Origin: Cyclobacteriaceae bacterium
GTDB lineage: Bacteria > Bacteroidota > Bacteroidia > Cytophagales > Cyclobacteriaceae
Reading direction: 5' to 3'
Length of the DNA stretch: 64,000 bases
Assembly: GCA_044221195.1 (NCBI GenBank)
Contig: JBGAPO010000005.1
Span: 35,481-99,480, forward strand
A program made the position numbers and the translations under genes. The notes beneath the pieces were generated by a model. The model did not search any database. It saw nothing but the letters and a program-made list of their open reading frames with translations, and had not been told where the DNA came from. How positions within the stretch are numbered: position 1 is the stretch's first letter; each line of letters opens with the position of its first letter. Of the stretch, positions 14,153-49,571 are shown one piece after another.

Positions 14153-14257
14153 CTGTTGGCTGTTAGCCATTGGCCTTTGGCTGTTAGCTGTTGGCCGTTA
14201 GCTGTTGGCCTTTGGCTATTAGCAGTTAGCTGTTAGCTATTGACAGTTGAGTATTGG
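14153..14257. repeat. 15 in-phase heptads, consensus CNNTTRG (TTGGC/TTAGC core)
   Basis: Units read directly: CTGTTGG CTGTTAG CCATTGG CCTTTGG CTGTTAG CTGTTGG CCGTTAG CTGTTGG CCTTTGG CTATTAG CAGTTAG CTGTTAG CTATTGA CAGTTGA GTATTGG. The array starts one nt after the OMP stop codon. Confidence 0.95.
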
Positions 14258-14332
14258 TTGGGGGAGTTCCCCATGGTGAGGGGCTGAGTTCATCGTGTAA
14301 TGCAGAAACACAACTATTGGTTGTAAGCCCAG

Positions 14333-14443
14333 CCAAAGGCCAAGTGCCAAAGGCCAAGTGCCAAGAGCCAAGTGCCAAGAGCCAAGTGCCAAGAGCCAAG
14401 TGCCAAAGGCCAATAGCCAACCCTAGCCAACCACACAGCCAAC
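14333..14443. repeat. 12 in-phase heptads CCAARNG (reverse complement of the 14153 family) plus a degenerate tail
   Basis: Units read directly: CCAAAGG CCAAGTG CCAAAGG CCAAGTG CCAAGAG CCAAGTG CCAAGAG CCAAGTG CCAAGAG CCAAGTG CCAAAGG CCAATAG, then CCAACCCTAG CCAACCACACAG CCAAC. The array ends 28 nt before ATG 14472. Confidence 0.95.
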
Positions 14444-14471
14444 AATTTTTCCTAAATTCGCCACAACCCCT

Positions 14472-17646: not shown

Positions 17647-17774
17647 CGGGGCGAATTTCTGATTTATTGGAGATTGCAGCAAGTTGGCGGGACTGACTAA
17701 AGTCCTAACCTGCATTCCATCAACCCCGCCGTATCACCGTACAGTATTCATTATGCCCTCTCCAGACGGAAGCG

Positions 17775-18179: not shown

Positions 18180-18193
18180 GGAAGGGTTAGTGG

Positions 18194-22172: not shown

Positions 22173-22211
22173 TGGAATTACATTAACTTTCTTTTCCAAC
22201 TTCATTCCGAT

Positions 22212-25608: not shown

Positions 25609-25723
25609 GAGGGGTGGTCGGTACGTCACTAAGAACGAGAGGGTAACCGGTCTGTATGTCCATTTTCCGTCGAGTGGCGGTTGTTGTCGGTGAACTGCCG
25701 GGGCGCACGTTGAACGGCGGTTT

Positions 25724-25868
25724 GTTGGCAATTGGCTGTTAGCTATTGGCGGCACACCGACTACCGACCTACCGACTACCGACCTACCGACCACCGATCC
25801 ACCGACCACCGATCCACCGATCCACCGATCCACTGACCACCGACTTACTGACTACCGACTCACCGATA
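25724..25868. repeat. 4 TTRGC heptads followed by 15 ACCGAY units alternating 7 and 8 nt (15-nt super-period)
   Basis: GTTGGCA ATTGGCT GTTAGCT ATTGGCG comes first. ACCGA/ACTGA then starts at 25756, 763, 771, 778, 786, 793, 801, 808, 816, 824, 832, 839, 847, 854 and 862. Confidence 0.95.
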
Positions 25869-25887
25869 ACCGTTACTATCTTTGCAC

Positions 25888-26904
25888 ATGCTCAACCCAT
25901 TCCCCACCAAAAGTTTTGCTGTCGACCTCGGAAACAACAATACGTTGGTGACCGACAGTCAACAGATACTCCTGGCACAGCCTTCCTATATCGTTTTCAA
26001 TCAGCGCGATAAGTCGGTGCGGGCGGTGGGTGACGAGGCCTACGATATCTTTGAAAAGACGCACGATCAACTCAAACCCGTGCGGCCCCTGCGGTGGGGC
26101 GTCATTGCCGACTATGCCTCCACCACGCTTATGCTTGACCGGATGGTGCGCCAGGTGTACAAGACCAGCGGGCTGTTTTCGCGGTTCGACCGGATTGTAT
26201 CGGGTGTGCCGTACAGCACCACCAACGTTGAGCGACGGGCACTCCGCGACGTGATGGAGCAGTTCCATTCCAGGCAAGTCAACCTGGTCTTTGAACCCCT
26301 CGCTGCCGCCGTCGGTATGGGACTAAACATCCGTGAGCCGGAAGGCAGACTGGTCATTGACATCGGCGGAGGCATCACAGAAATTGTCATTATCTCCCTC
26401 TCGGGCATAGCGGTGTTTGAATCCTTAAAAATAGCCGGCGACAACTTCACGGAGGCAGTTATTGATTACGTCAGGCGAGAACATCACGTCGTCCTGGGTT
26501 GGAAGACGGCCGAACAGGTGAAGATGAAACTCGGCGGCGCCATGCGGTCAACCGAGGGGCTTGCGGAACTCGTGGTCAAGGGCAAAGACCTCGCGGACGG
26601 TATCCCGGTACCGGTAACCTTGCGACACGAAGAGATGGTGGCAGCGCTCGACCCTGCCGTCCGCGCCATTGAAGATAAACTCATCCAGACGCTCGACACG
26701 GCACCCCCGGAACTTGCGGCCGACATTTTTGCCAACGGTATCCACCTCACGGGCGGCAGCGCTCTCCTCCGCGGCATGTCCGACCGACTCAGCCGCACAA
26801 CCGGCCTGACAGTTCACCGCGACCCCACGCCGCTGCTGTCTGTCAGCAAAGGTCTTTCAAAAGTGCTGATGAAGCCGAAAGAGTACGTTTCGGTATTGAG
26901 CTGA
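25888..26904 (+). CDS. MreB/Mbl-like actin-fold ATPase, divergent orphan paralog
   Basis: The track start 25882 is TTG; the first ATG is 25888. Actin-fold motifs are FAVDLGNNNTLV (phosphate 1), VIDIGGGITEIVIIS (phosphate 2) and IHLTGGSALLRG (adenosine). No mreC or mreD lies adjacent. Confidence 0.8.
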   Translation: MLNPFPTKSFAVDLGNNNTLVTDSQQILLAQPSYIVFNQRDKSVRAVGDEAYDIFEKTHDQLKPVRPLRWGVIADYASTTLMLDRMVRQVYKTSGLFSRFDRIVSGVPYSTTNVERRALRDVMEQFHSRQVNLVFEPLAAAVGMGLNIREPEGRLVIDIGGGITEIVIISLSGIAVFESLKIAGDNFTEAVIDYVRREHHVVLGWKTAEQVKMKLGGAMRSTEGLAELVVKGKDLADGIPVPVTLRHEEMVAALDPAVRAIEDKLIQTLDTAPPELAADIFANGIHLTGGSALLRGMSDRLSRTTGLTVHRDPTPLLSVSKGLSKVLMKPKEYVSVLS

Positions 26905-26946
26905 GTTGGGATTGGCTCATTGGCCTTTGGCTTTTGGCCGTTAACA
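26905..26946. repeat. about 6 TTGGC-core heptads between convergent mreB-like and argS
   Basis: GTTGGGA TTGGCTC ATTGGCC TTTGGCT TTTGGCC GTTAACA, starting immediately after the stop at 26904. Confidence 0.9.
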
Positions 26947-28732: not shown

Positions 28733-28741
28733 GGGTGCAAT

Positions 28742-28815
28742 TCTCTGCGTCTCCGCGCCTCTGCGGTAATGTATTCCGCGCGGAATTTAACCGCAGAGGC
28801 GCTGAGGCGCAGAGA
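28742..28815 (-). promoter_or_regulatory. 25-bp-stem hairpin with nested palindromic loop between the DHS-like stop and the argS start
   Basis: TCTCTGCGTCTCCGCGCCTCTGCGG (28742-28766) pairs with CCGCAGAGGCGCTGAGGCGCAGAGA (28791-28815), with 1 mismatch and 1 G-U pair. The loop contains the palindrome TTCCGCGCGGAA (28774-28785). Confidence 0.75.
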
Positions 28816-28817
28816 CT

Positions 28818-29795
28818 CTACATGTCAAGAATATAGGCGAACATCAGCGGTGCCACGATCGTTGCATCGCTTTCGACGATGAACTTGGGCGTATCGATGC
28901 TGAGTTTGCCCCAGGTGATTTTTTCGTTGGGCACAGCGCCTGAATAAGATCCGTAGCTCGTGGTGCTGTCGCTGATCTGGCAGAAGTAGCTCCAGAAAGG
29001 CACATTGTCGCGCTCCAGGTCCTGGTGCAGCATCGGCACTACGCAAATCGGGAAGTCGCCGGCAATGCCGCCGCCAATCTGGAAGAAGCCAATGCCGTCC
29101 TTGCCCGAGTTCTTCGTGTACCAGTCTGCCAGCCACACCATGTACTCGATACCCGACTTCATGGTGGACGCCTTCAATTCACCGGTCACCACATACGAGG
29201 CGAAGATGTTGCCCATGGTGGAATCTTCCCAGCCCGGCACCACCATCGGCATGTTCTTTTCCGCGGCGGCGATCATCCAGGAGTTCTTCGGGTCGATCTC
29301 ATAATACTGCTTCAAGTCGCCGCTGTTGATCATGCGGAACATGAATTCGTGGGGGAAAAGGCGTTCGCCCTTGTCTTCGGCGTCTTTCCACACTTTATAC
29401 AAGTGCTTCTGCAAACGGCGAAAGGCTTCCTCTTCCGGAATGCAGGTATCTGTAACACGGTTGAGGTGGTTTTGAAGAAGGTCCCACTCCTGTTCGGGGG
29501 TGAGGTCGCGGTAGTGAGGGATGCGGCGGTAGTGGCTGTGGGCCACGAGGTTCATGATGTCCTCCTCCAGGTTGGCTCCCGTACACGAGATGATATGCAC
29601 TTTGTTCTGCCGGATCATCTCGGCGAAGCTGATGCCCAATTCGCCGGTACTCATGGCGCCGGCCAATGACACCAGCATTTTCTTGCCGTCGGCGATGTGT
29701 TTTTTGTAGGCTTTGGCCGCATCGACCAGGGCGGCGGCGTTGAAGTGCAGGTAGTTCTTTTCGATGAAAGCGGAAATGGGGCGATTCGTGCTCAT
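28818..29795 (-). CDS. deoxyhypusine synthase-like protein (DHS/homospermidine-synthase-like family)
   Basis: 325 aa. The N-terminus FIEKNYLHFNAAALVDAAKAYKKHIADGKKMLVSLAGAMSTGELG and the overall length match my recollection of bacterial DHS-like proteins. Polyamine-related neighbours lie at 32694 and 33882. Confidence 0.6.
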   Translation of the reverse strand: MSTNRPISAFIEKNYLHFNAAALVDAAKAYKKHIADGKKMLVSLAGAMSTGELGISFAEMIRQNKVHIISCTGANLEEDIMNLVAHSHYRRIPHYRDLTPEQEWDLLQNHLNRVTDTCIPEEEAFRRLQKHLYKVWKDAEDKGERLFPHEFMFRMINSGDLKQYYEIDPKNSWMIAAAEKNMPMVVPGWEDSTMGNIFASYVVTGELKASTMKSGIEYMVWLADWYTKNSGKDGIGFFQIGGGIAGDFPICVVPMLHQDLERDNVPFWSYFCQISDSTTSYGSYSGAVPNEKITWGKLSIDTPKFIVESDATIVAPLMFAYILDM

Positions 29796-29827
29796 GCAGG
29801 GGTTAAAATTTGGGCGAATATACTTAC

Positions 29828-29915
29828 TAGGATTAGAAGGATTATAGGATTCATAGGATTATGGAGGAGATTATAGGATTCATAGGATCATGGAGATTGT
29901 AGGATTCATGGGACT
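29828..29915. repeat. AGGATT array (8-10 nt spacing) containing a 30-nt tandem duplication
   Basis: AGGATT/AGGATC starts at 29829, 838, 846, 855, 875, 884 and 901, with AGGAGATT/GAGATT variants at 29865 and 29893. GGATTATAGGATTCATAGGATTATGGAG (29839-66) compares with AGATTATAGGATTCATAGGATCATGGAG (29869-96). Confidence 0.9.
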
Positions 29916-30021
29916 ATAAGCGGGGATAAAGGTTTGGAAGTGGGTTGGGGGGTTTGGGGTGTGAGAAGTTTCATTGCCATCATCGCGAGATATTCACCAT
30001 CTTCGGCTATTCATTTCTACT

Positions 30022-31629
30022 ATGCGCAAAGCCTTCTGGATCACATCATTTTTGCTGGTAAATGCAATTGCCCATGCACAGCTTTCGGCTGACAGCGTGC
30101 AACGGATCGACCAGCTTTTTACCCGCTGGAATAATGCCACGCCGGGCGGGGTGATTACCGTCGAACGAAACGGGAAGGTGATCTACAGCAAGGCCTTTGG
30201 TTTGGCGGACCTGGAGCACAATGTGCCCAACACCACATCCTCGATTTTTGAATGCGGCTCCGTCTCCAAGCAGTTCACCGCAGCAGCTGTCCTCCTGCTG
30301 GCCCAGGAAGGCAAGCTGTCGCTGGACGACGACATCCGCAAGTACATTCCTGAACTGCCGGTCTACCAGGCGCCCATTACGCTTCGCCAGTGTATGAACC
30401 ATACGAGCGGGCTCAAAGACTGGGGCAGTATCGGGGCGTTGAGTGGATGGCCGCGAACGACACGGGTGTACACGTTGGACCTGGCACTGCAGATCTTGTG
30501 CCGTCAGCAGTCGATCAACTTCCGGCCGGGCACAGAGTATTCGTACAGCAACGCCGGGTATACGGTTCTGGTGATCATCGTGGAACGCGTGACGAAGCAG
30601 TCGCTGGCGGAATTTACGCGGACCCGGCTGTTCGAACCGGCCGGAATGAAGAACACCCAGTGGCGTGACAACTTCCGCAAGATCCTACCCAACCGCTCCG
30701 TCGCCTACCGGAAAACGGGCGGCGGCTATGAACAAGAGATGCCGTTTGAAAACATCCACGGCCACGGCGGCCTGCTCACCACCACGGAAGACCTGATCGC
30801 GTGGAACCACCAGCTGGCCAATCCCACCATTGGCGGGGAGAGCGTATTGAAAATGCGCACCCAGCAGGGCAAGCTCAGCAACGGCAACAGCATCGCGTAC
30901 TCCGGAGGAATAAACGTACAGAAGTTCAACGGCTACCGCGAGATTACACACACGGGCGCCACCGCCGGCTACCGGGCCGTGCTGTCGTATTATCCCGAGA
31001 AGAAATTGAGCATCGCCATGCTGAGCAACGACGGCAGCTTCAACCCAGGAGGATATAACAACCAGGTGGCAGAGATTTTTCTCGGCAAGCCGGCCACCGC
31101 TCCCGCACCGTCAAAATTTGTAACCGCCTCCAACGATCAGCTAAAGCGCTACGACGGCATCTACCGTAGTGTGCGCAACTTCGATGTCATTACCCTGAAG
31201 TATGACAATGGCCGTGTACTGACGAACGAGAAGGTCCTGAACGTCATTCATCCCGACACCCTTTACCTTGACCGCCTCTACTGGATCTTCAAAAAGCCGG
31301 GCCAGGTGCTGGTGAAAAGTGCAGGCGACACAAACACTTACGTCCGCGTCAATCCGCCGGTGACCGACCCCGCAACGTTGAAATCATTCGTTGGGAGTTA
31401 CCGCTCGGCGGAGGCAGACGCAACGTTCATGGTCGAACTGCGCGGATCTGAACTGTGGCTGAACAATCCTCCGCACGGAGCCTACAAACTCACTCCTTCC
31501 TTTCGCGACGGGTTTCGCTCCGACGATATGGACTTGTATGAATTCAAGCGGGACAAGAAGGGTGCCGTGCAGCGGCTGGAGGTCAGTGCAGGGCGCGCGG
31601 AACGGATCGTATTTGTAAAAACCAATTGA
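30022..31629 (+). CDS. serine hydrolase, class C beta-lactamase/penicillin-binding family, secreted
   Basis: ORF trimmed to ATG 30022 (MRKAFWITSFLLVNAIAHAQ). Contains the SxxK motif CGSVSKQF and the YxN motif YSYSNAGY. A C-terminal extra domain of about 180 aa follows. Confidence 0.8.
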   Translation: MRKAFWITSFLLVNAIAHAQLSADSVQRIDQLFTRWNNATPGGVITVERNGKVIYSKAFGLADLEHNVPNTTSSIFECGSVSKQFTAAAVLLLAQEGKLSLDDDIRKYIPELPVYQAPITLRQCMNHTSGLKDWGSIGALSGWPRTTRVYTLDLALQILCRQQSINFRPGTEYSYSNAGYTVLVIIVERVTKQSLAEFTRTRLFEPAGMKNTQWRDNFRKILPNRSVAYRKTGGGYEQEMPFENIHGHGGLLTTTEDLIAWNHQLANPTIGGESVLKMRTQQGKLSNGNSIAYSGGINVQKFNGYREITHTGATAGYRAVLSYYPEKKLSIAMLSNDGSFNPGGYNNQVAEIFLGKPATAPAPSKFVTASNDQLKRYDGIYRSVRNFDVITLKYDNGRVLTNEKVLNVIHPDTLYLDRLYWIFKKPGQVLVKSAGDTNTYVRVNPPVTDPATLKSFVGSYRSAEADATFMVELRGSELWLNNPPHGAYKLTPSFRDGFRSDDMDLYEFKRDKKGAVQRLEVSAGRAERIVFVKTN

Positions 31630-31631
31630 CA

Positions 31632-32651: not shown

Positions 32652-32693
32652 CTGCACCGCGTCAACGGACCGCACCGCTGCATACGGTCAACT

Positions 32694-33668
32694 TCAGACT
32701 TTCGAGTCTTCCAGCTGCTCCTGTGCCGCAAGGACCTTCGCGGTAGCCTCCATGATTTCGAAGGCGCTCTCCGCCATGCTGTTCTGGCTGTCGAGTGTGG
32801 GGTTCACTTCGGCAATCTCCCACGCGCATAGTTTCGGGCTTTTCGCCAGTTCGACATTTAATGCTTTTGCCTCGGCAACGGTCAACCCGTTGGGTACCGG
32901 CGTGCCCGTGCCCAGCGAGATCCGGCTGTCCATACTGTCGACGTCAAACGATACGTAGATTAAATCACAGTGGTCGAGGTATTTGAGCACCTCTTTCGCG
33001 ACGGCTTCGGGGCCCATGCGCTTGACTTCCTCCGCGGTGAAGTTCGGTATGCCGTATTTGTTGATCAGGTAGTTCTCCGGTTTCTCCATGTCGCGCATGG
33101 AGACGTAAACGAGGTCTTCGGGATAAATCTTGGCGCCGGGAATGCCCACGTTCATGATCTGTTCCCAGTATTCGATCGTCTCCCCTTTCGGGTCGTTGAT
33201 CTTGCACTCCAGGTTGTCGATGTCGCAGGCCATGGCCAGGGTCATGCCGTGCATGTTGCCGGAGGGTGTGGTATAGGGTGAATGGAGGTCGGCGTGGGCG
33301 TCGATCCACACAACCCCGAGGCGCTTCTTCGGGTGGGCCTTCTTGATTCCGGCGATGGTGCCGAAGGCGGTGCTGTGGTCGCCGGCCATGATGATGGGGA
33401 AGAAATCATCAAAAATCTGTTCGTAGACTTCCAGGCATACGCGCTCTTCCATGATCAATACGCCGTCGATGAACTTGGCGTAGGCGTGCTCGGCGCTGTT
33501 GAAGAGCAGCTCGTTGACGTTTTCCACCTCCACGGATTCATGCTGCCGGAAGAAATCCGATTTCATATCGAGGCTGGCAATCTTCATGGCTTCGACGCCC
33601 AGGCTCGCGCCCCGGGTGCCGGCACCGATCTCCGACTTGACTTGAATGATCTTGATTTTCTGGCTCAC
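32694..33668 (-). CDS. arginase-family ureohydrolase (arginase-like)
   Basis: Mn-site motifs are AGDHSTAFG, WIDAHADLHSP and SFDVDSMD. The SGNMHGM segment resembles the arginase SGNxHG loop more than the agmatinase loop. Confidence 0.75.
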   Translation of the reverse strand: MSQKIKIIQVKSEIGAGTRGASLGVEAMKIASLDMKSDFFRQHESVEVENVNELLFNSAEHAYAKFIDGVLIMEERVCLEVYEQIFDDFFPIIMAGDHSTAFGTIAGIKKAHPKKRLGVVWIDAHADLHSPYTTPSGNMHGMTLAMACDIDNLECKINDPKGETIEYWEQIMNVGIPGAKIYPEDLVYVSMRDMEKPENYLINKYGIPNFTAEEVKRMGPEAVAKEVLKYLDHCDLIYVSFDVDSMDSRISLGTGTPVPNGLTVAEAKALNVELAKSPKLCAWEIAEVNPTLDSQNSMAESAFEIMEATAKVLAAQEQLEDSKV

Positions 33669-33881
33669 AAAATGGGAATTATTACAACCAACAACACGGT
33701 ACAGAATCCCGACAGATACGCAGGACCCGACGCAAGGTCAGACGGGCCCTGCCTCAGAGGTCGGGCAGGGCATGCAGGGAGGCGAGCCGGGGGAGAAATT
33801 GGAGTCCTTGCATGCGGGAAGTGTATTGCAAAGATGGCAAATTTATTCCAATATTGCGCCCTTTACCCCTTTGGCCACGAG

Positions 33882-35330
33882 ATGAAGAGTTACCGCGAAC
33901 TCATTGAACAAACCTTCGAGTTTCCTCAGGAAGAGTTCAAGGTGTGGGAGCACGAACTGCTGTTCAATGACGTACCGCTGATGGACATCATCAAGGAGTA
34001 CGGCACGCCCCTCAAGCTCACCTACCTCCCCCGCATCAGCGAGAATATCCGGTTTGTCCAGGCGACTTTCAACAACGCCATGGAGCGGTTCAAGTACAAC
34101 GGCAAGTATACCTACTGCTACTGCACCAAATCTTCGCACTTCTCGTTCGTCCTGGAAGAGGCGCTCAAGAACAACGTCCACATTGAAACCAGTTCCGGGT
34201 TCGATATCAATATCGTGCGCTCCCTCTATGAGCGCGGGAAGATCACAAAAGACACCTACGTGGTCTGCAACGGCTTCAAGATGCCGGCGTACACCGACAA
34301 CATCTCGTCGCTCCTCAACGACGGGTTTCACAACTGCATACCGCTGCTCGATACCCTCAGTGAAATCGACGTCTACGAGCAAAAGGTAAATGTCCCGTAC
34401 AGCGTCGGCATTCGTGTCGCATCCGACGAAGAGCCCAAGTTTGAGTTCTATACCTCGCGTCTCGGCATCCGCTACAGCGATATCGTCACGCTTTATAAAG
34501 AGAAGATTGCGACAAGCCCGAAGGCCCAACTGAAAATGCTGCACTTCTTCATCAACACGGGCATCAAAGACACGGCCTACTACTGGAGCGAATTGAGCCG
34601 CTTTATTTTCAAATACTGCGAACTGCGCAAACTCTGCGATACGCTGGACTCCGTGGACATCGGCGGCGGATTCCCCATCAAGACGTCCCTCACGTTCACC
34701 TACGACTACAAGTACATGATCGAGCAGATCGTGGAGAACATCAAGTGGATCTGCGACAAGAATAACGTTCCCGTTCCCAACATCTTTACGGAGTTTGGGA
34801 GTTTCACGGTGGGCGAAAGCGGGGCCATCCTCTATTCTGTGGTCGACCAAAAGCTCCAGAACGACAAGGAGCTCTGGTACATGATCGACGGTTCCTTTAT
34901 CACCCAGATGCCCGACGCCTGGGGACTCAATCAGAAATACATTCTATTGGCTGTCAACAAATGGGATGACCCCTACCATAAGGTCAACCTGGGCGGGCTT
35001 ACGTGCGACAGCATGGATTATTACAACTCCGAAGCGCACATCGGCGAAGTGTTTCTTCCCATGATCAACGACGAGGAGCGGCTCTACATCGGGTTCTTTC
35101 ACACCGGGGCCTACCAGGAGTCGCTCGGCGGATACGGCGGCATTCAACATTGCCTGGTGCCTGCACCCAAGCACGTGCTCGTTTCGCGCAATGAGGACGG
35201 TGAAATCTTCACTAAGCTATTCTCTCCCGAGCAGAGCAGCGACAGCATGATGAAAGTGCTCGGTTATGCCAATGGCGACCGGGCTTCTGAAACTGCACCC
35301 AGCGAAGTCCAGACTTCCGCAAAAAATTAA
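33882..35330 (+). CDS. arginine/ornithine decarboxylase-type PLP enzyme (fold type III), probable arginine decarboxylase
   Basis: ORF 33282..35330 trimmed to ATG 33882 (MKSYRELIEQTF); the upstream part is antisense to the arginase gene. PLP-Lys context YCYCTKSSHF. Gly-rich DIGGGFPIK. Substrate-loop GGLTCDSMD. Confidence 0.7.
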   Translation: MKSYRELIEQTFEFPQEEFKVWEHELLFNDVPLMDIIKEYGTPLKLTYLPRISENIRFVQATFNNAMERFKYNGKYTYCYCTKSSHFSFVLEEALKNNVHIETSSGFDINIVRSLYERGKITKDTYVVCNGFKMPAYTDNISSLLNDGFHNCIPLLDTLSEIDVYEQKVNVPYSVGIRVASDEEPKFEFYTSRLGIRYSDIVTLYKEKIATSPKAQLKMLHFFINTGIKDTAYYWSELSRFIFKYCELRKLCDTLDSVDIGGGFPIKTSLTFTYDYKYMIEQIVENIKWICDKNNVPVPNIFTEFGSFTVGESGAILYSVVDQKLQNDKELWYMIDGSFITQMPDAWGLNQKYILLAVNKWDDPYHKVNLGGLTCDSMDYYNSEAHIGEVFLPMINDEERLYIGFFHTGAYQESLGGYGGIQHCLVPAPKHVLVSRNEDGEIFTKLFSPEQSSDSMMKVLGYANGDRASETAPSEVQTSAKN

Positions 35331-38529: not shown

Positions 38530-38578
38530 TCGGCTTGCCCAGACGTAGCTTAGTGAAGTCGGGGTGGGCAGTGGTGTC

Positions 38579-38641
38579 GTGAACAGTGAACTGTGAACAG
38601 TAAACGGTGAACTGTGAACTGTGAACAGTAAACGGTGAACT
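38579..38641. repeat. 9 in-phase heptads GTGAACN/GTAAACG
   Basis: GTGAACA GTGAACT GTGAACA GTAAACG GTGAACT GTGAACT GTGAACA GTAAACG GTGAACT. Confidence 0.95.
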
Positions 38642-38707
38642 GGACCACATATGGCGCGCGTTTGTAAGGCGCGGGATAAATATACTCGGAGGCAGCACCT
38701 CAATTCC

Positions 38708-38916
38708 CTCGAAGCTTCTCGAACAACTTTGGGACCTCTCTCGAAAAAGCCTCGAAGCCCTCTCGAACCGGCCTAGAAGCCGTCTCAAAGAAACAGCTCG
38801 TTTTCTCGAAGCCGTCTCGAAGCGCGCTCGAACAACGATAGAATTTTCTCGGAGAAACGCGCATCTGGTCGAAGGAATGCCTTCATTTTCTCGGCCCATA
38901 TTGTTTTTTCTCGGAT
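38708..38916. repeat. about 15 CTCGAAG-like motifs phased at 10-11 nt (or multiples of that)
   Basis: Motif starts at 38708, 718, 740, 751, 762, 773, 784, (797), 805, 816, 827, 848, 868, 890 and 910. Spacings are 10, 22, 11, 11, 11, 11, 21, 11, 11, 21, 20, 22 and 20. Confidence 0.85.
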
Positions 38917-38976
38917 AGGGGCCCGACGGCCATGTCCTAAGTCGGTGGGTCAATGGGTTGGTGATCAAGTGTGGTC

Positions 38977-39028
38977 GTGAACCGTGAACGGTAAACTACG
39001 GTTTACAGTTCACTGTTTACCGTTCACA
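38977..39028. repeat. hairpin built from GTGAAC-family heptads (3 direct + 4 inverted units)
   Basis: GTGAACC GTGAACG GTAAACT, then ACG, then GTTTACA GTTCACT GTTTACC GTTCACA. GTGAACGGTAAAC (38984-96) is perfectly complementary to GTTTACCGTTCAC (39015-27). Confidence 0.9.
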
Positions 39029-39030
39029 AT

Positions 39031-39046
39031 CGGCACATCGGCACAT
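39031..39046. repeat. 2 CGGCACAT octads
   Basis: CGGCACATCGGCACAT. Shares the 15-mer GGCACATCGGCACAT with 41533-41547. Confidence 0.9.
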
Positions 39047-39147
39047 CCCCGTGGGGGTTCCGGGTGGTCTTGTGAAGTTTACACCCACGCTGGCAAAAAA
39101 GCACTTCCGGGCACAACCCCTGCATCCGCGAATCCATTACCTTGGAT

Positions 39148-41468: not shown

Positions 41469-41563
41469 CGGTACATTCACCGCAATTTCATTCGCACATC
41501 TGCACATCGACCCATTGGCACGTTGACACATTGGCACATCGGCACATTGGCCAATCGACTAAT
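41469..41563. repeat. about 12 octads, NNGCACAT family
   Basis: CGGTACAT ... TCGCACAT CTGCACAT CGACCCAT TGGCACGT TGACACAT TGGCACAT CGGCACAT TGGCCAAT CGACTAAT. The last unit abuts or overlaps the gmhB-like stop codon (41563-65). Confidence 0.9.
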
Positions 41564-42072
41564 CATCTAACCATCACGGTCGCCGCTTCCAGCAGGTTCC
41601 GGACAATGAATTCTCCCCGGTGTTCCGGCTCCACCTCATCCCCGATTTGAATGGTGCGGATGCCAAGGGTGCGGGCGGGGATCAGGTCCCGGCCGCGGTC
41701 GCCCACCATCCACGACTGGCGGGCGTCGATGTCAAATTTTGCAATCGCCTTTTCAAACATCAGTGTGCCCGGCTTGGTGAGGAGTGAGTTGTTGACGGAC
41801 CGGTGGTAGGGCGAAAAGTAGAAGTGGTCGATGAGCCCGTTGCATACCTGCTGGAGGTAGGCATGACATTCTTTCATCTGGTCGACGGTGTAGATGCCCT
41901 TGTCGATGCCGGATTGATTGGTTACCACGACGAGCAGGAAGTCCGCCTTCTTTAACAGCTGCAGCGCCTCGACAACGCCCGGAAGGATCTCGAAGTTCTC
42001 GATGGTATAGGTGTAGTTCGGATTGTCTTTGTTCAAGACGCCATCCCGGTCCAGGAAAACGCAACGGCTCAT
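41563..42072 (-). CDS. gmhB: HAD-IIIA phosphatase, D,D-heptose 1,7-bisphosphate phosphatase-like
   Basis: Only the last 169 codons of track ORF 41563..43308 are used (ATG 42072). MSRCVFLDRDGVLN carries the DxDGxxN motif, followed by VVTNQSG and MVGDRGRD. The upstream part of that ORF is antisense to the GT2 and lolE-like genes. Confidence 0.75.
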   Translation of the reverse strand: MSRCVFLDRDGVLNKDNPNYTYTIENFEILPGVVEALQLLKKADFLLVVVTNQSGIDKGIYTVDQMKECHAYLQQVCNGLIDHFYFSPYHRSVNNSLLTKPGTLMFEKAIAKFDIDARQSWMVGDRGRDLIPARTLGIRTIQIGDEVEPEHRGEFIVRNLLEAATVMVR

Positions 42073-42123
42073 GGACCCAAATATCAAGCCTTTTTTGCTA
42101 AGTTTGTCGTCCACCCCTTTCCC

Positions 42124-42879
42124 GTGACCCGCGCCCTCGTCATCACGCCCACGTACAACGAGATCGAAAACATCGAGGCGATCATCGAGGCCGTCTTTGC
42201 GCAGCCCACACCCTTCCACATGCTTATCGTCGACGACGGCTCGCCCGACGGCACTGGTGAGGTGGTGAAGAAACTCCAGGGAAAATTCAATACGTCGGAA
42301 CAGCGCCTGCACCTCATGGAGCGCAAAGGAAAGCTGGGCCTGGGCACCGCGTATATTGATGGGTTCCGGTATGGACTCAACCAGGGCTACGACTACTTCC
42401 TCGAGATGGACGCCGACTTCTCCCATGATCCCAAAGACCTCAGCCGTCTGCTGGCCGCCTGTGAAAAAGAGGGCGCCGATCTCTCGATTGGCTCGCGCTA
42501 CGTCACGGGAGTCAACGTGGTGAACTGGCCGATGGGCCGCGTGCTGATGTCGTTCTGCGCCAGCATGTACGTTCGTTTCATCACAGGCATGAACATCCAG
42601 GATACCACGGCGGGATTCGTCTGCTACCGCCGCGAGGTACTGGAAACGCTGGAACTCGACAAGATTCACTTTGTCGGTTACGCTTTTCAGATCGAGATGA
42701 AATTCACGGTATGGAAGTTCGGCTTCAAGCTCGCGGAGGTGCCGATCATCTTTACCGACCGCACGCGCGGGCAGTCGAAAATGTCGACGCGGATTTTCCG
42801 CGAAGCGTTTCTCGGCGTCATCCAGATGAAGGTATGGAGCTGGTTCCGCAACTACGCGCGGAAGCCGAAGACCAGCTAA
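42124..42879 (+). CDS. GT2 family polyprenol-phosphate mannosyl/glycosyltransferase (Dpm1/Ppm1-like)
   Basis: GTG start. Contains LVITPTYNEIENI, LIVDDGSPDGT and EMDADFSHDP. Confidence 0.8.
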   Translation: MTRALVITPTYNEIENIEAIIEAVFAQPTPFHMLIVDDGSPDGTGEVVKKLQGKFNTSEQRLHLMERKGKLGLGTAYIDGFRYGLNQGYDYFLEMDADFSHDPKDLSRLLAACEKEGADLSIGSRYVTGVNVVNWPMGRVLMSFCASMYVRFITGMNIQDTTAGFVCYRREVLETLELDKIHFVGYAFQIEMKFTVWKFGFKLAEVPIIFTDRTRGQSKMSTRIFREAFLGVIQMKVWSWFRNYARKPKTS

Positions 42880-44096
42880 TCGAAGCGGATCGCCTTGATG
42901 GGGCTGATCCTGGAGATGATCGCCGTGGGCACCCACAGGACCAGGGCGACAACGACAAAAATCAAAACATTCAGGAAGATGACGATCGGCCAGTCCCAGG
43001 CGATAGGTACGTAGCTCATGTAGTAATCCTTCGGGTTCAGCGTGATGATCTTGAATTGATCCTGGATGAAGCAAATGCCCAGGCCGATGGCATTGCCCAG
43101 CAACAGTCCCCGCGCCACTAGGTTGATTCCCTGGTAAACAAACACCGACCGGATGGTGTGCCCGGCACTGCCTAACGCTTTGAGCATGCCGATCATTTGT
43201 GTGCGCTCCATCACCAGGATGAGAATGACGGAGATCATGTTGACACAGACTACAATGAGAATGACGCCCAGCAGGATATTGACCTGCCGGCTTACCAAGG
43301 CCAGCCATTCAAAAACCTGGACGAACCGGTCGCTGACGCGCTCCACGAGGAGATCGAAATCCATGGAGGCATTGATTTCGTCGTACGTATCATCCACCTT
43401 GTTCAAATCGTTGACGAAGACTTCCAGCCCGCCCGCGATGCTGTCGGGCCAGTCGTTGAGGCGCTGAACGAGGCGGAGGTCGGCGATGATAAACTTGTTG
43501 TCGAAATAATCAGATAAGTTTGTTTCATAGATTCCAGAAACACGCAGACGCCGGAAGCGCGGAGGGTCCTGGAAGAAGTGGATGGTAATGTCATCTCCTG
43601 TCTTCGCATGGATCTTGTCGGCAATGGACCGGCTGATGACGACTTCGCGGGAATAGCCCGAATCGGGGAACGCCAGGAACTTTCCATCCACCAGGTTGCC
43701 GGAGAAAGCCTGTTGGTCGAAATCGTGCCCGACACCCTTAATGATTACGCCCAATACCTCTTCCTCCGCCTTGACGAGTCCGGTCTTGTGACTGAAAGGC
43801 TGCACATGACGAATATTCGGGAATTGGCCGGGGTCGCGGTACAGGGGAATATTGATATCAATGGGCTGTTCCTCCACCGAATTGCTCAGGCTGAGTTTGG
43901 TGACGAGGATATTGGCACTAAAACTGTAGACCTTGTTCTTGACGGTGCTCTCAAAACCTTCCATGATGAGGAACGAAACAATGGATGCCGCCAGGCCGAT
44001 GGAAAGCGTGGCGATGGCAATCGTATAAATCGCCGAAGCCAGTCCCGACTTGTGGCCGGAGCTGATTCGCCGGGCGAGGAAATAGGAAAGGTTCAA
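42876..44096 (-). CDS. FtsX-like ABC transporter permease (LolC/LolE family)
   Basis: Track ORF 42876..44135 starts at a TTG only 1 nt from the divergent namZ-like ATG. I prefer the in-frame TTG at 44096, which gives MNLSYFLARRISSG, the usual N-terminus of this family. Four TM helices with a large periplasmic loop. The start is uncertain. Confidence 0.7.
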   Translation of the reverse strand: MNLSYFLARRISSGHKSGLASAIYTIAIATLSIGLAASIVSFLIMEGFESTVKNKVYSFSANILVTKLSLSNSVEEQPIDINIPLYRDPGQFPNIRHVQPFSHKTGLVKAEEEVLGVIIKGVGHDFDQQAFSGNLVDGKFLAFPDSGYSREVVISRSIADKIHAKTGDDITIHFFQDPPRFRRLRVSGIYETNLSDYFDNKFIIADLRLVQRLNDWPDSIAGGLEVFVNDLNKVDDTYDEINASMDFDLLVERVSDRFVQVFEWLALVSRQVNILLGVILIVVCVNMISVILILVMERTQMIGMLKALGSAGHTIRSVFVYQGINLVARGLLLGNAIGLGICFIQDQFKIITLNPKDYYMSYVPIAWDWPIVIFLNVLIFVVVALVLWVPTAIISRISPIKAIRFD

Positions 44097-44136
44097 GATT
44101 GCCGTATTTTTGAACTGGGCCTGTAAAGAACGCAAA

Positions 44137-45282: not shown

Positions 45283-45285
45283 GCG

Positions 45286-45927: not shown

Positions 45928-45933
45928 GAAAGC

Positions 45934-46024
45934 GTGAACTGTGAACCGTGAACAGCATCCTCGGAACTCGAAACTCGAAACTCGAAACTCGGAACTCGAA
46001 ACTTTGAACCTTGAACTTTGAACT
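45934..46024. repeat. 13 in-phase heptads with an RAAC core filling the nth-fmt spacer
   Basis: GTGAACT GTGAACC GTGAACA GCATCCT CGGAACT CGAAACT CGAAACT CGAAACT CGGAACT CGAAACT TTGAACC TTGAACT TTGAACT. Confidence 0.95.
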
Positions 46025-46033
46025 GGTAAGTGA

Positions 46034-46951: not shown

Positions 46952-46964
46952 CCGGCACCAAGGC

Positions 46965-47465: not shown

Positions 47466-47469
47466 CACA

Positions 47470-47850
47470 ATGGACTCACATAAACGCATTCTCGGCATCA
47501 TCTTCATCGTTTCGGGGATTTTGCTCGTCATGGCCATGATGATCCTGGCGATGGTTTTCTCCTTGTTCATCCCATGGATTGCCGATGCCGCGGGCGAAGA
47601 CCAGCAGTGGGTATTCTCCTGGCTGATCCCGTTCATTCGGTTTATTGCCATCCTGGTCTGCGTCGTCATTGCACTGCCTTCTCTCATCGCCGGGTGGGGC
47701 CTTTTGAACAATAAGTCGTGGGCCATGCTACTGGCACTCATCGTGGGCTGCCTGCGCCTGTTCTCCTTCCCCATCGGAACGGCCATCGGCATTTACACCA
47801 TCTGGGTTTACGTGGAAGACAACCGCATTAAAAGCGAGCGGCCGATATGA
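47470..47850 (+). CDS. small integral membrane protein (4 TM), unknown function
   Basis: 126 aa with four hydrophobic segments. Its stop overlaps the next start (ATGA at 47847-50). Confidence 0.6.
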   Translation: MDSHKRILGIIFIVSGILLVMAMMILAMVFSLFIPWIADAAGEDQQWVFSWLIPFIRFIAILVCVVIALPSLIAGWGLLNNKSWAMLLALIVGCLRLFSFPIGTAIGIYTIWVYVEDNRIKSERPI

Positions 47851-48653
47851 GTCTACAGGGAAAGGTGATCTGGCTGACCGGCGCTTCATCGGGTATCGGT
47901 GAGTCGTTGGCTTATGAACTGGCCCGCAAGAAAGTGAAGCTGATTCTCTCCGCCCGTCGGAAGGAAGAATTGGAGCGCGTCAAGGGCAATTGCCATCCGC
48001 TGGCACAGCCCGACATCAAGCTGCTCCCGTTTGATCTGGCGGAAGCCGCCAACCTGCAGTTGATTACGGAAGCGGCCATTCACTTATTCGGACATATTGA
48101 TATCCTCATCAACAACGGCGGAATCAGTCAACGAAGCCTGGCCAAGGACACGCTTGTCAATGTCGACCGCAAGATCATGGAGGTCGATTACTTCGGAACG
48201 CTGACCATTACCAAGTATTTGCTGCCGCACTTCCTCAAGCGCAAGAGCGGACACTATGTCGTGGTGACCAGCGCCATGGGACTCATCGGCACACCGTACC
48301 GTTCGGGCTATGCGGCGGCCAAGCACGCCCTGCATGGTTTCTTCGATTCACTTCGGGCGGAACTTTGGAAGGAGAGTAAGTACATTTACGTCACGCTGGT
48401 TTGCCCCGGATGGGTGCACACCAGCATTTCTGTCAACGCGATGACGGGCGACGGATCGAAGCTCAACAAAATGGACGCGACGACGCACCATGGGCTTGAC
48501 CCGAAAGTGTTTGCCAAAAAAATGGTGCGAGCCATCGAGCAGCGCAAGAATGAGGTATATATCGGCGGACTGAAAGAAGTTTCGGCGATCTACCTGAAGC
48601 GGTTTCTCCCCGATCTTTTCGCGCGTCTCGTGCGCACCGCCAAAGTTCGCTGA
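47847..48653 (+). CDS. short-chain dehydrogenase/reductase (SDR)
   Basis: Contains TGASSGIGESLA (TGxxxGxG), NNGG and the catalytic YAAAKHAL (YxxxK). Confidence 0.85.
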   Translation: MSLQGKVIWLTGASSGIGESLAYELARKKVKLILSARRKEELERVKGNCHPLAQPDIKLLPFDLAEAANLQLITEAAIHLFGHIDILINNGGISQRSLAKDTLVNVDRKIMEVDYFGTLTITKYLLPHFLKRKSGHYVVVTSAMGLIGTPYRSGYAAAKHALHGFFDSLRAELWKESKYIYVTLVCPGWVHTSISVNAMTGDGSKLNKMDATTHHGLDPKVFAKKMVRAIEQRKNEVYIGGLKEVSAIYLKRFLPDLFARLVRTAKVR

Positions 48654-49402
48654 TGGCCTGGTACGAATACATCCTCATCACCTTTGTCGGATTTCTCGCG
48701 GCGTTCATGAACACGGTCGGGGGCGGCGGGTCCTTGTTCTCCGTACCGATCCTAACCTTCCTCGGCCTGCCCATCACCATGGCCAATGCCACAAGCCGGG
48801 TGGCGATCCTCTTTCAGAACGTCTTTGCGGTCATCGGCTTCAAGAGCAAAGGCGTTAAACTTCCCTGGCCCTACAGTATTTACCTCGGACTGGCGTCGCT
48901 GGGCGGCGGCATCCTGGGTTCGTTCCTCGCGTCGCGCATCGCCGACGAAGTCTTTTCAAAAATCTTTGTAGGCATCATGTTCCTTTCCGTCATCCTGATC
49001 ATCTACGATCCGTTCAAATCAAAAGGAGAAGAAAAGTTGGACACCCGCAGCCAGATTATCGGCAGCCTGTTCTTTGTCCTGCTGGGTGTCTACGGCGGGT
49101 TTGTTCAGGCCGGCATTGGGTTCATGGTCATTGCCGTACTGAGCCTGGTGAACAACCTGAACCTGGTTACCGCGAACTATGTTAAAGTGTTTGCGGCCAT
49201 TGTGTACACCGGCGTCTCTGTTCTTGTTTTCGGAATCCAAGGCAAGATCCAGTGGTCAACCGGGTTGGTCCTTGCCGTCGGTCATGCCCTGGGAGGCTGG
49301 TATGCCAGCCGCTGGTCGGTTTCCGCCGGTGAAGCGTGGATCAAGCGGGTGATGGTGGTGTCGATTATTGCGATGGCGGTGAAGTTGTGGTTCTGGGGGT
49401 GA
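48653..49402 (+). CDS. TauE/SafE family sulfite/anion exporter membrane protein
   Basis: 249 aa with about 8 TM segments. The N-terminal FMNTVGGGGSLFSVPILTFLGLP is typical of the family. Confidence 0.7.
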   Translation: MAWYEYILITFVGFLAAFMNTVGGGGSLFSVPILTFLGLPITMANATSRVAILFQNVFAVIGFKSKGVKLPWPYSIYLGLASLGGGILGSFLASRIADEVFSKIFVGIMFLSVILIIYDPFKSKGEEKLDTRSQIIGSLFFVLLGVYGGFVQAGIGFMVIAVLSLVNNLNLVTANYVKVFAAIVYTGVSVLVFGIQGKIQWSTGLVLAVGHALGGWYASRWSVSAGEAWIKRVMVVSIIAMAVKLWFWG

Positions 49403-49432
49403 GCTGTGAACGAAGGCCGTTGGACCTGGCGT

Positions 49433-49571
49433 CCGTCAGGCTTCGGCTTCGCTCAGCCTGACGGTGTACCCAAATTTGAACCTGGTTCCGTCACCCTGAG
49501 CGGAGCCGAAGGGCCGTCACCCTGAGCGGAGCCGAAGTGCCGTCACCCTGAGCGGAGCCGAAGGGTGACGC
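49433..49571. repeat. REP/BIME-like cluster: one inverted hairpin unit plus three 26-nt tandem units
   Basis: The inverted unit is CCGTCAGGC-TTCGGCTTCGCTCA-GCCTGACGG (49433-64). CCGTCACCCTGAGCGGAGCCGAAG[G/T]G then repeats at 49488, 49514 and 49540. The last copy closes as the hairpin CGTCACCC...GGGTGACG. Confidence 0.9.

Follow-up and report, generated by a model that had tools for sequence, protein, structure and literature searches.

Heptamer-class tandem arrays and long stem-loops in the intergenic spacers of a Cytophagales bacterium

The phased tandem arrays that occupy intergenic spacers in a stretch of 64,000 nucleotides (the window) from a Cytophagales bacterium are heptamer-class long simple-sequence repeats, a kind already described elsewhere and found here in Cytophagales spacers. 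They gain and lose whole units by replication slippage, as seen directly between closely related strains. With moderate confidence, we regard them as best explained as intercistronic or 3′-end RNA stem-loops with arms that grow by slippage, a role that we infer from the features presented below.

Occurrence and placement of the arrays

Thirteen arrays were located in the window with Tandem Repeats Finder and by direct reading, and cover 819 bp of ~5,600 bp of spacer DNA (~15%), whereas 50 dinucleotide shuffles of the same spacers averaged 0.12 arrays and 3.7 bp. The tandem repeats within the elements described below include 14149-14242, 25723-25750, 25755-25867, 26911-26939, 38738-38832, 39001-39047, and 41489-41559. 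Essentially all arrays listed in a first-pass annotation of this DNA were recovered, and its statement that they are nonrandom and intergenic was upheld, every array scoring 60 or more being intergenic once the start of the OmpA-like gene was reset to ~25608. The excess in noncoding DNA was also found in the clade (1.45 Mb), where arrays cover 2.0% of intergenic and 0.15% of coding DNA. As in long simple-sequence repeats, a class with units of 5-11 nt and mostly 7 nt, the units are arranged head to tail in longer-than-chance runs and are polymorphic in number; periods of 7 and 14 predominate, and periods of 8, 9, and 10-11 nt are also present. Housekeeping genes flank the arrays (argS, EF-G, fmt, nth, and an MreB-like gene). 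The host is a soil or freshwater Cytophagales (Bacteroidota) bacterium, and a cyanobacterial origin was rejected.

Three recurring cores had been named by the annotation, and all were borne out, TTRGC (in at least 3 tandem units) and GTRAAC at four sites each and GGCACAT with an 8-nt period at two, all of these being unlinked places within the 64 kb. A further core, CTCGRA, is common to positions 45960-46003 and the 10-11-nt array at 38700-38916.

Several other repeat classes were considered and rejected. The arrays are not CRISPR, as previously stated, since the units are contiguous and without spacers; a search for Rfam matches gave no known RNA families, and no tRNAs were found. A reading as coding repeats was rejected because the open reading frame (ORF) through 25755-25833 results from an incorrectly assigned GTG start (the lipoprotein actually starts at ~25608), and the ORFs over 38530-39141 run through arrays with no Pfam hit. 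Phase-variable contingency repeats were rejected because the flanks are housekeeping genes, unit lengths are not divisible by 3, and the arrays are located outside ORFs; integron attC sites were ruled out in view of the synteny of the flanking housekeeping genes.

Paired arrays and stem-loops

A giant stem-loop lies between a TonB-dependent-receptor-like gene (11216-14152) and the gene with its ATG at 14472. Its 5′ arm (14149-14257, plus strand) begins inside the TAG stop of the former gene and is built from ~15 G/T-rich heptamers TTRGCYN with a period of 7, and its 3′ arm (14331-14450, plus strand) contains ~13 C/A-rich heptamers GCCAARN (period 7, 14331-14432), then the outer stem ACAGCCAACA, and then T5 at 14446-14450; a TAAATTCG box is present at 14453-14460. 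The two arms pair over 88 nt with 73% complementarity (MFE -126.7 kcal/mol, z -4.2). The stem is followed by AUUUUU, the sole stem with a T-run, and folds better as antisense than as sense RNA. Arm lengths vary together across lineages (4+4, 15+9, and 15+13 units), strain L210 having 4 units in each arm, and strain L212 having a 5′ arm identical to that of the window and a 3′ arm of 9 units.

A second stem-loop (28742-28815, minus strand), an inverted pair of CTCTGCGN 8-mers missed by the first-pass annotation, lies between the stop of the dhs-like gene and the start of argS. Each arm consists of ~3 tandem 8-mers (CTCTGCGN / NCGCAGAG), and the 26-nt arms are 92% complementary (MFE -52.5 kcal/mol, z -8.6). 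Across 8 strains, no change was seen in the stems and 2 were seen in the loop. Hairpins with z ≤ -3.3 occupy the dhs-argS junction in ~25 of 36 syntenic relatives, against a background of strong hairpins in 22% of tandem spacers (55% of convergent and 3% of divergent ones, a distribution that ties strong hairpins to gene 3′ ends); the dhs-argS hairpins are built from at least 7 unrelated motif families, begin 0-8 nt past the stop, and end 3-17 nt ahead of the ATG.

Downstream of EF-G, a REP-like hairpin (38533-38569) precedes an array of 9 GTRAACN heptamers (38579-38642, plus strand) that begins 50 nt past the EF-G stop; the distances to stops and starts given by the first-pass annotation were correct apart from that of this array. 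The array is complementary to 38998-39028, within a self-contained hairpin of GTRAAC units and their complement (38977-39028, plus strand), directly after which 2.4 copies of ATCGGCAC were found (39029-39047, plus strand). Between the two GTRAAC arms sits a loose array with a CTCRRA / TCTCGAA core (38700-38916, plus strand; 10-11-nt or doubled spacing, with a period of 11/22 at 38738-38832), in which 11 cores were counted in 241 nt vs. 0.2 expected, at spacings of 10, 11, 21, or 22 nt. The ORFs across 38700-38916 gave no Pfam hit. A ParR-type centromere was considered for this array; no partition genes are nearby. The z values of the three computed folds were -4.2, -8.6, and -3.6. The 28.7-kb and 39.0-kb stems and most dhs-argS stems have no U-tract, and stems other than that at 14.1 kb therefore do not look like canonical intrinsic terminators.

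The 49.4-kb element (49434-49570, plus strand) is another kind of repeat, comprising three copies of a 26-nt unit CCGTCACCCTGAGCGGAGCCGAAGGG (49488-49565) and one inverted copy upstream. The REP form, an imperfect palindromic unit of ~20-40 nt, was found in this element and in 38533-38569 and not in the heptamer arrays. The earlier statement that only the 49.4-kb element resembles classical REP hairpins was right as to that element and has to be amended otherwise, since many arrays are inverted pairs forming hairpins. The arrays share with REP elements an intergenic location downstream of genes and an imperfectly palindromic form of a kind that can stabilize upstream mRNA, and differ from them in having no fixed 20-40-nt consensus, their stems being composed of tandem 7-mers with a length that shifts by slippage. 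An origin of the arrays by insertion of foldback, MITE, or REP-type elements, mobile or recombinogenic, is regarded as highly improbable. Such insertion would agree with the two REP-like elements, with the duplication of the hairpin-plus-array module in strain L081 (GTGATC x7, then GTGAAC x4), with the end of synteny with L081 at 38624, within the GTRAAC array, with the absence of the array-flanked MreB-like gene from L001-L004, and with the different hairpin families at the dhs-argS junction of different genomes. However, L003 and L210 carry the TTGGC/GCCAA pair of the 14.1-kb locus, with fewer units, in their orthologous spacer, and the pair is therefore old and resident; moreover, loci with the same core share neither flanks nor target duplications, and no transposase is nearby.

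Solitary arrays

In the 280-nt divergent spacer of the OmpA-like gene, a TTGGC-type heptamer array (25723-25751, plus strand) lies on the OmpA-like side, is C/A-rich on the sense strand of that gene, and has 3 extra units in strains L081 and L082. It is followed by a C/A-rich ACCGAYY array of alternating 7/8-nt units with a period of 15 (25755-25868, plus strand), which stops ~20 nt short of the MreB-like ATG with a TATCTTTG box in between, and which shows unit gains and losses in the same two strains. Another TTGGC-type heptamer array (26905-26946, plus strand) fills the convergent spacer from the MreB-like stop to the argS stop and differs in close strains by point changes and one extra unit. 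The AGGATT-core array (29828-29917, plus strand) is composed of 8-9-nt units, lies 32 nt upstream of the dhs-like start, and is G-poor (AATCCTA) on the sense strand of that gene. Its super-unit, previously given as 30 nt, is 26 nt long according to Tandem Repeats Finder and to a 26-nt indel between strains, the window containing one additional super-unit relative to each of the 9 other strain contigs. A CsrB-like GGA sponge was considered at this site; the array is antisense to the adjacent gene.

The GGCACAT-type 8-nt array (41489-41563, minus strand, period 8/16) abuts the stop of the minus-strand gene 41563-43308, is G/T-rich on the sense strand of that gene, and has no partner arm. The array at 45933-46024 (plus strand) separates the nth stop from the start of fmt, leaving 10 nt to the ATG, and combines three heptamer motifs in one register (GTGAACN x3, CGRAACT x6, and TTGAACY x3-4), all of which share an RAAC core. 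The CGRAACT block consists of 6 units in the window and in strains L220 and L229, and of 18 in L226. Because the array triples directly upstream of fmt between strains with an identical nth (endonuclease III) protein, this suggests that its length is under weak constraint.

Pairing and polarity

Among 86 arrays of the clade, 27 (~1/3) have a partner in the same spacer that is complementary at 17/21 positions or more, and ~2/3 have no partner arm, including those at 25.7, 29.8, 41.5, and 45.9 kb. In the paired layout, the G/T-rich arm begins at or just past the stop and the C/A-rich one stops a few to ~30 nt short of the next start, so that the spacer folds as a single long stem, interrupted every 7 nt by a 2-nt mismatch. 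Read 5′ to 3′, the G-rich (mostly G/T-rich) strand leads away from the nearest gene, irrespective of gene orientation (Fisher p = 1.5e-5; 0.003 without orthologous loci). The same polarity was found in an independent metagenome sample (22:9, with the partner arm 5′ in 8/8 cases) and in solitary arrays of divergent and convergent spacers. G exceeds C in the 5′ arm of hairpins generally (71:25), and also of hairpins without arrays (53:23). The sense RNA was the more stable in 17 cases and the antisense RNA in 9, which is not significant (p = 0.10), and the 14.1-kb stem folds better as antisense; the comparison thus gives no significant sign of selection on the sense transcript.

The polarity bears on a reading that we consider very unlikely, in which the arrays would be polar Rho-related insulators, with RNA entering a gene rich in C over G, unstructured, and rut-like, RNA leaving a gene rich in G over C, and the rut site masked within operons by arm pairing. 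At starts and stops alike, it is always the C-rich strand that reads toward the neighboring gene, and transcription from either side reaches the G-rich arm first. Scans for σ70 promoter and short-terminator consensus sequences, which do not cover Bacteroidota promoter types, gave only chance levels; this agrees with Rho-related insulators as far as classical terminators are concerned, and with the claim of the first-pass annotation that little room is left for conventional promoters or terminators. Nevertheless, the idea is purely compositional, rut sites are not known to be spaced at 7 nt, and C/A-rich arrays lie 10-30 nt upstream of the essential fmt and argS, where Rho loading would be harmful. 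Putative -7 boxes (TAnnTTYG) are present between some arrays and the start; because of these boxes, such arrays may be located upstream of a promoter rather than in the mRNA.

Strain variation and slippage

Whole-unit indels were found at five spacers (14.1, 25.7, 26.9, 29.8, and 45.9 kb) between strains that are 97-98% identical, so that replication slippage, one of the options offered by the first-pass annotation, is directly supported. Motifs turn over completely between genera, and the position of an array outlasts its motif at the dhs-argS junction, upstream of the orthologue of the gene at 14472, and downstream of EF-G; the arms remain complementary while the motif changes. The earlier proposal that freely varying arrays would be neutral thus receives a divided answer: unit number varies freely between strains and looks neutral, whereas position and hairpin architecture are conserved across the whole family and do not.

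A possible but less probable explanation is that the arrays are neutral by-products of a polymerase with a 7-nt slippage preference, surviving only in harmless spacers, and that the hairpins and polarity reflect pre-existing terminator-like palindromes that were extended, not a function of the arrays. The free variation of unit number between near-identical strains (6 vs. 18 and 4+4 vs. 15+13), the complete motif turnover, the two-thirds of arrays that are unpaired, the ordinary housekeeping genes at the flanks, and the 5′-G-rich polarity of array-free hairpins all point in this direction, as does the polymerase-contact slippage proposed for the heptamer excess by Mrazek in 2007, as cited in PMC4679880. 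Against neutrality, array position far outlasts the motif, the arms stay complementary despite motif change, and solitary arrays obey the orientation rule, which a gene-blind mutational process does not predict.

Comparison with known heptamer repeats

Cyanobacteria have been known to contain heptamer repeats since 1990, and such repeats were later recognized in Xanthomonas, Burkholderia, and Beggiatoaceae; we know of no established function or agreed cause for them in bacteria. The remark of the first-pass annotation that no function has been described was therefore fair as to function, but the class itself has been described, as cyanobacterial STRR, long simple-sequence repeats, TAACTGA repeats, and the Xanthomonas and Nostoc heptamers.

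The GGGAATC heptamers of Xanthomonas and GGGGAYT heptamers of Nostoc are in excess in intergenic DNA with 2-26 units per array, frequently form convergent inverted pairs capable of a stem-loop, are mostly transcribed in Xanthomonas, and have the G-rich strand <50 bp after a stop (sense) or <50 bp upstream of an ORF (antisense) (Rehm et al. 2015, PMC4692102). The heptamers, inverted pairs, and orientation rule are the same as in the window arrays. The differences are that the Xanthomonas and Nostoc hosts are not Bacteroidota, that Rehm et al. found stabler gene neighborhoods near repeats (PMC4692102), whereas one array of the window is at a synteny break, and that their units carry G-tracts and form G-quadruplexes in vitro, whereas the window arrays are essentially without GGG/CCC runs. 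G-quadruplexes were accordingly rejected here (0-1 GGG runs per array, no tandem GGGNATC), and because the orientation rule holds for motifs unable to form them, the G-quadruplex explanation for Xanthomonas is not general.

Cyanobacterial STRR are 7-bp tandem units, often forming hairpins between adjacent cistrons (hupS-hupL), with a proposed role in transcript stability or translational coupling and a function given as unknown (PMC2670836). They resemble the window arrays as intergenic 7-bp units that form intercistronic hairpins; in contrast, the classical CCCCAGT, TTGGTCA, and CAACAGT motifs were not found in the window, the host is one of the Bacteroidota with Cytophagales relatives, and HIP1 is not enriched. 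TAACTGA repeats occur in Beggiatoaceae, cyanobacteria, and a few Bacteroidetes, among them Flexibacter litoralis, and directly precede start codons in the "forward" orientation, with a reverse-orientation set just past the stop codon in a Cytophagales genome (MacGregor 2015, PMC4679880). Arrays of the window have similar placements; the window differs in having no tandem copy of TAACTGA (three single copies, all on the minus strand), many coexisting cores, and frequent stem pairing. In the survey of Mrazek, Guo and Shah (2007), as cited in PMC4679880, repeats of 5-11-nt units are longer than expected by chance and heptanucleotides are the most abundant; insofar as described there, these repeats match the window in their heptamer-dominated, longer-than-chance arrays and proposed slippage origin, and Bacteroidota are not listed among the richest genomes. 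The window adds a Bacteroidota lineage in which ~15% of the spacer DNA consists of heptamer-type arrays. Any explanation has to accommodate a position and a stem-loop that far outlast the motif, a unit number that shifts between near-identical strains, and an orientation rule obeyed by motifs without G-quadruplex potential.

Proposed role of the stem-loops

In the explanation that we favor, the functional unit would be the stem-loop rather than the motif. On a transcript, it would act as a 3′-end or intercistronic structure that protects or terminates the upstream message. By clamping the stop to the next start, the base of the stem would conceal the region where translation of the downstream gene begins, and a terminating ribosome could open the stem and so allow downstream initiation, resulting in translational coupling. 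Slippage, by changing arm length, would cause a heritable change in stem length. Solitary arrays may be one-armed derivatives, or G-poor unstructured stretches that are tolerated upstream of starts in a lineage said to lack Shine-Dalgarno pairing. Several observations given above weigh against this explanation, namely the nonsignificant difference between sense and antisense stability, the lack of a U-tract after stems other than that at 14.1 kb, the large share of arrays with no partner arm, the tripling of the 45.9-kb array next to fmt, and the putative -7 boxes.

It is also conceivable, though improbable in our estimation, that the arrays are landing platforms for a putative single-strand nucleic-acid-binding protein (cold-shock-domain or S1-like) with a footprint of ~7 nt, one protein per unit, and that its binding to the first-transcribed G/U-rich arm decides whether the stem forms. 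The strict 7-nt register despite motif drift, the reuse of a few cores at unlinked loci in one genome, and a polarity set by the 5′-to-3′ order on either strand are consistent with such a protein, as are the binding of CspB to heptamer repeats with one protein per heptamer and the proposal of Csp, S1, and CsrA as binders of TAACTGA repeats (PMC4679880). On the other hand, TTRGC, GTRAAC, ACCGA, CTCGAA, AGGATT, GGCACAT, and CTCTGCG coexist in 64 kb, and a single sequence-specific binder is hard to reconcile with so many unrelated cores in one window; periods of 8, 9, and 10-11 nt occur as well. Should the register nevertheless be the footprint of a protein of this type, loaded per unit on the G/U-rich arm and deciding the closure of the stop-to-start stem, which we similarly doubt, the arrays would act as a general switch controlling termination, mRNA stability, and translational coupling in bacteria without Shine-Dalgarno pairing. 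Such a switch could respond to temperature or growth state, with a gain heritably tuned by unit number, and the orientation rule shared by Xanthomonas, Nostoc, and Cytophagales, with no G-quadruplex in the last, would point to one mechanism for all bacterial heptamer repeats.

Effect on assemblies

At 14.1 and 45.9 kb, short-read contigs terminate within the arrays, 4/10 strain contigs ending inside 14331-14450 and 7/10 inside 45933-46024. In practice, the arrays disrupt short-read assemblies of this group.

Occurrence of arrays and shared cores

The short-period arrays are real and intergenic. Tandem Repeats Finder (TRF) and direct reading bore out essentially all of those located by the first-pass annotation, and in the window all arrays scoring at least 60 were intergenic, the coding DNA containing a few weak two-copy matches only. 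The spacer set comprised the 32 spacers of at least 30 nt in the window (~5,600 bp in total) after one start was corrected, that of the OmpA-like lipoprotein gene being set near 25608 in place of the GTG at 25833. Thirteen arrays covered 819 bp of these spacers, whereas dinucleotide-preserving shuffling of the same set left 0.12 arrays and 3.7 bp on average.

The three cores said to recur at unlinked loci were all found again by motif search of the window: TTRGC at four sites, as runs of three or more heptamers, GTRAAC at four sites and GGCACAT, with an 8-nt period, at two sites. A fourth shared core, CTCGRA, is added here; it forms heptamers at 45960-46003, and at 38700-38916 its 11 copies (0.2 expected) are spaced by 10-11 nt or twice that. 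The super-unit at 29.8 kb, previously given as 30 nt, was measured by TRF and strain comparison as 26 nt. An element of like kind that had been passed over, an inverted pair of 8-mers, was located at 28742-28815.

Genomic context

Ordinary genes flank the arrays, encoding a TonB-dependent-receptor-like outer-membrane protein, an OmpA-family lipoprotein, an MreB-like protein, ArgS, a deoxyhypusine/homospermidine-synthase-like protein (dhs), EF-G, endonuclease III (nth), Fmt and MsrB. Relatives of ArgS were 100% Bacteroidota of the order Cytophagales ('Cyclobacteriaceae' MAGs of the Ohtaekwangia/Chryseolinea group), the closest being 87% identical at the protein level. The window gave no match to known RNA families or tRNAs (Rfam, ARAGORN) and no HIP1 enrichment.

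The MreB-family gene (25882-26904) is bordered by arrays on both sides (25723-25868 and 26905-26946). In the window and close strains it separates the OmpA-like gene from argS; the next relatives, L001-L004, lack it there, so it represents an insertion or a loss. A polyamine-type neighbourhood (dhs-like gene, arginase-family gene, Orn/Arg decarboxylase) occupies 28818-35330 and is also found in strain L081; identity across genera is 94-98% for the dhs-like protein and only 76-87% for ArgS. The G-rich tract GGGTTGGGGGGTTTGGGG (29943-29960), in the divergent spacer upstream of a beta-lactamase-family gene, is the sole G-run-rich stretch near any array.

Stem-loop structures

Arrays are often paired as stop-to-start stems. 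The arrays outside 49.4 kb had been set apart from classical REP hairpins; several proved to be the paired arms of one stem-loop, a feature overlooked at first pass, and others were partnerless. Between the TonB-dependent-receptor-like gene and the gene starting at 14472, 14149-14257 (TTRGCYN) and 14331-14450 (GCCAARN) are reverse complements with arms of 88 nt (73% complementary). They fold into a ~90-bp stem with a small internal loop per 7 nt (MFE -126.7 kcal/mol, z -4.2), in which the outermost pairs are TGTTGGCTGT and ACAGCCAACA, followed by T5 (14446-14450). Downstream of EF-G, 38579-38642 is complementary to 38998-39028, and 38977-39028 is a self-contained hairpin. The stem-loop at 28.7 kb, in the dhs-argS junction (28733-28817 folded), gave -52.5 kcal/mol and z -8.6. 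In such pairs the 5' arm begins at or just past the stop codon and the 3' arm stops shortly before the next start. An inverted-arm search found no partner arm for the arrays at 25.7, 26.9, 29.8, 41.5 and 45.9 kb.

TAnnTTYG boxes (TAAATTCG, TATCTTTG, TATATTCG), similar to the Bacteroidota -7 promoter element, were observed at 14453-14460, 25877-25884 and ~29816-29823 (minus strand), 3-20 nt upstream of start codons and immediately downstream of arrays. If these boxes are real, the arrays before them are promoter-upstream DNA and not 5'UTR.

Comparison with close strains

Exact-protein look-ups yielded independent assemblies sharing 97-98% identity with the window. The arrays were the main sites of length change between them, and whole-unit differences upheld the earlier suggestion of slippage as origin. 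At 29.8 kb the window is one 26-nt super-unit longer than 9/9 other contigs; at 25.7 kb units were gained or lost in both arrays, and at 26.9 kb point changes and one unit differed. At 14.1 kb the arms of the stem count 4+4 units around a 12-nt loop in one strain (L210), 15+9 units in another (L212) and 15+13 in the window. The CGRAACT block at 45.9 kb, between the nth stop and the fmt start, has 6 units in three strains vs 18 in another, with identical nth proteins, which suggests that its length is unconstrained. Phase variation is a minor alternative reading of the arrays. The 28.7-kb stem, unlike the arrays, is invariant, its sole two changes falling in the loop.

Slippage and local duplication both act on the arrays. 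Downstream of EF-G in L081 (reverse complement of 1-1200), a module of REP-like hairpin and heptamer array (GTGATC x7, then GTGAAC x4) is duplicated, and within the GTRAAC array, at 38624, the strain loses synteny with the window. The REP-like palindromes at 38533-38569 and 49434-49570 belong to one family (…GACG-N-AGC…GAAGTCGGGG… / CCGTCACCCTGAGCGGAGCCGAAGGGTGACG). That the arrays are mobile foldback or REP-like elements is a minor alternative, suiting only the 49.4-kb and 38.53-kb units.

Contigs ended inside an array in 7/10 cases carrying nth and 4/10 carrying the 14.1-kb neighbourhood (near 14.4 kb), including short-read metagenome contigs of this species (L221-L228, L211, L214, L216, L217). 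Arrays therefore fragment assemblies and will be undercounted in MAG-based surveys. L220 (GCA_041912235.1) and L001 belong to one assembly, in which ArgS is only 87% identical to that of the window, the nth protein is 100% identical and the 45.9-kb array nearly identical; this mismatch suggests that the bin is chimeric or that the nth segment was recently exchanged.

Relation to known heptamer repeats

Among the long simple-sequence repeats of prokaryotes, heptanucleotides form the most frequent class, and polymerase-contact slippage has been put forward to explain them (Mrazek 2007, as summarised in PMC4679880). In cyanobacteria, STRRs have 7-bp units and are commonly found as intercistronic hairpins (PMC2670836). 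TAACTGA repeats precede start codons in Beggiatoaceae, in cyanobacteria and in five Bacteroidetes, among them Flexibacter litoralis (Cytophagales), which also carries a reverse-oriented set just past the stop (PMC4679880). Rehm et al. described an intergenic excess of GGGAATC in Xanthomonas and GGGGAYT in Nostoc, with 2-26 units per array and 70-75 convergent inverted pairs per genome, lying on the sense strand <=50 bp after a stop or antisense <=50 bp upstream of an ORF, and mostly transcribed (PMC4692102). This anatomy is that of the window's arrays. G-runs and all those published motifs were absent from the window's arrays by motif search, so the shared anatomy cannot depend on G-quadruplexes. 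The arrays are heptamer-class simple-sequence repeats of STRR type in a Cytophagales lineage, not a new class.

Comparison across related genera

In the window plus 80 loci of related genera (1.45 Mb total), arrays of period 5-40 made up 2.0% of intergenic vs 0.15% of coding DNA. The commonest periods were 7 and 14. A platform for a protein with a 7-nt footprint is a minor alternative reading of the arrays. Array position is conserved and sequence fluid: arrays persist in orthologous spacers with shifted motif and copy number. In the spacer preceding the 14472 orthologue, one related genome (L003) has TTGGC...GCCAA arms with 3-4 units and another (L002) three GCCAA units, and both have tandem-arm hairpins of GTRATC and CACAGATTA units downstream of EF-G.

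The dhs-argS junction is the clearest case and well defined for experimental tests. Hairpins with z <= -3.3 occurred in ~25/36 syntenic relatives, in at least seven unrelated motif families (for example TTGTTSG/CSAACAA, GAGATGT/ACATCTC, ACGTAAGAC/GTCTTACGT, AGTATTGAG/CTCAATACT and CTCTGCG/CGCAGAG), many with tandem-repeat arms; the hairpin is thus retained despite complete sequence turnover. The stems start 0-8 nt past the stop and end 3-17 nt short of the ATG. Equally strong folding was found in 22% of tandem, 55% of convergent and 3% of divergent spacers, so hairpins of this clade accompany gene 3' ends.

Judged from predicted folds and spacer comparison, there is about an even chance that the stem-loop is the functional unit, acting on RNA. 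As a 3'-end or intercistronic structure it would stabilise the message, terminate transcription or couple translation; its arms would be supplied and resized by slippage, and solitary arrays would derive from it with one arm only. The lack of a U-tract in most stems, the two thirds of arrays that are unpaired, the possible -7 boxes and the apparently unconstrained 45.9-kb length count against this reading. The main rival, that arrays are neutral by-products extending pre-existing palindromes, appears possible but rather unlikely, and Rho-related polar insulators are a minor alternative. The first-pass observation is confirmed, and its interpretation backed in part.

Long spacers of 600-750 nt (window, 38700-38916; L027, 5446-6202) house several arrays whose 10-11-nt units combine a 7-nt core with 3-4 variable bases and follow one another at roughly helical spacing, with complementary heptamer arrays on both sides. 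L027, from a relative with ArgS only 71% identical, shows the same composite arrangement at another locus than the window.

Orientation of arrays

Read on the sense strand of the gene, stop-adjacent arrays were rich in G+T (25:7) and start-adjacent arrays in A+C (28:8), with almost no skew in array-free spacer ends. Array orientation follows a geometric rule, G>C in the left half of the spacer and C>G in the right half on the plus strand, valid in tandem, divergent and convergent spacers (Fisher p = 1.5e-5; p = 0.003 without orthologous argS flanks). Reverse complementation leaves the rule unchanged; it therefore reflects a 5'->3' directional process on single strands and not coding-strand choice. 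An independent metagenome scan for (GCCAANN)x4, with matches from very diverse taxa (GC 28-72%), supports the rule: read on the GCCAA strand, the array was nearer the downstream gene in 22 vs 9 cases, whatever the gene orientation, and a TTGGC partner array lay 5' of the GCCAA array in 8/8 cases. The value of the arrays is comparative, the orientation rule and inverted-pair architecture being extended to non-G4 motifs and a new phylum.

The 5' arm was G>C in strongly folding spacers overall (71:25) and in those without arrays (53:23). In a test for selection on the sense transcript, sense RNA was stabler than antisense in 17/26 cases, a non-significant excess (p = 0.10); at the 14.1-kb stem, the antisense folds better than the sense.
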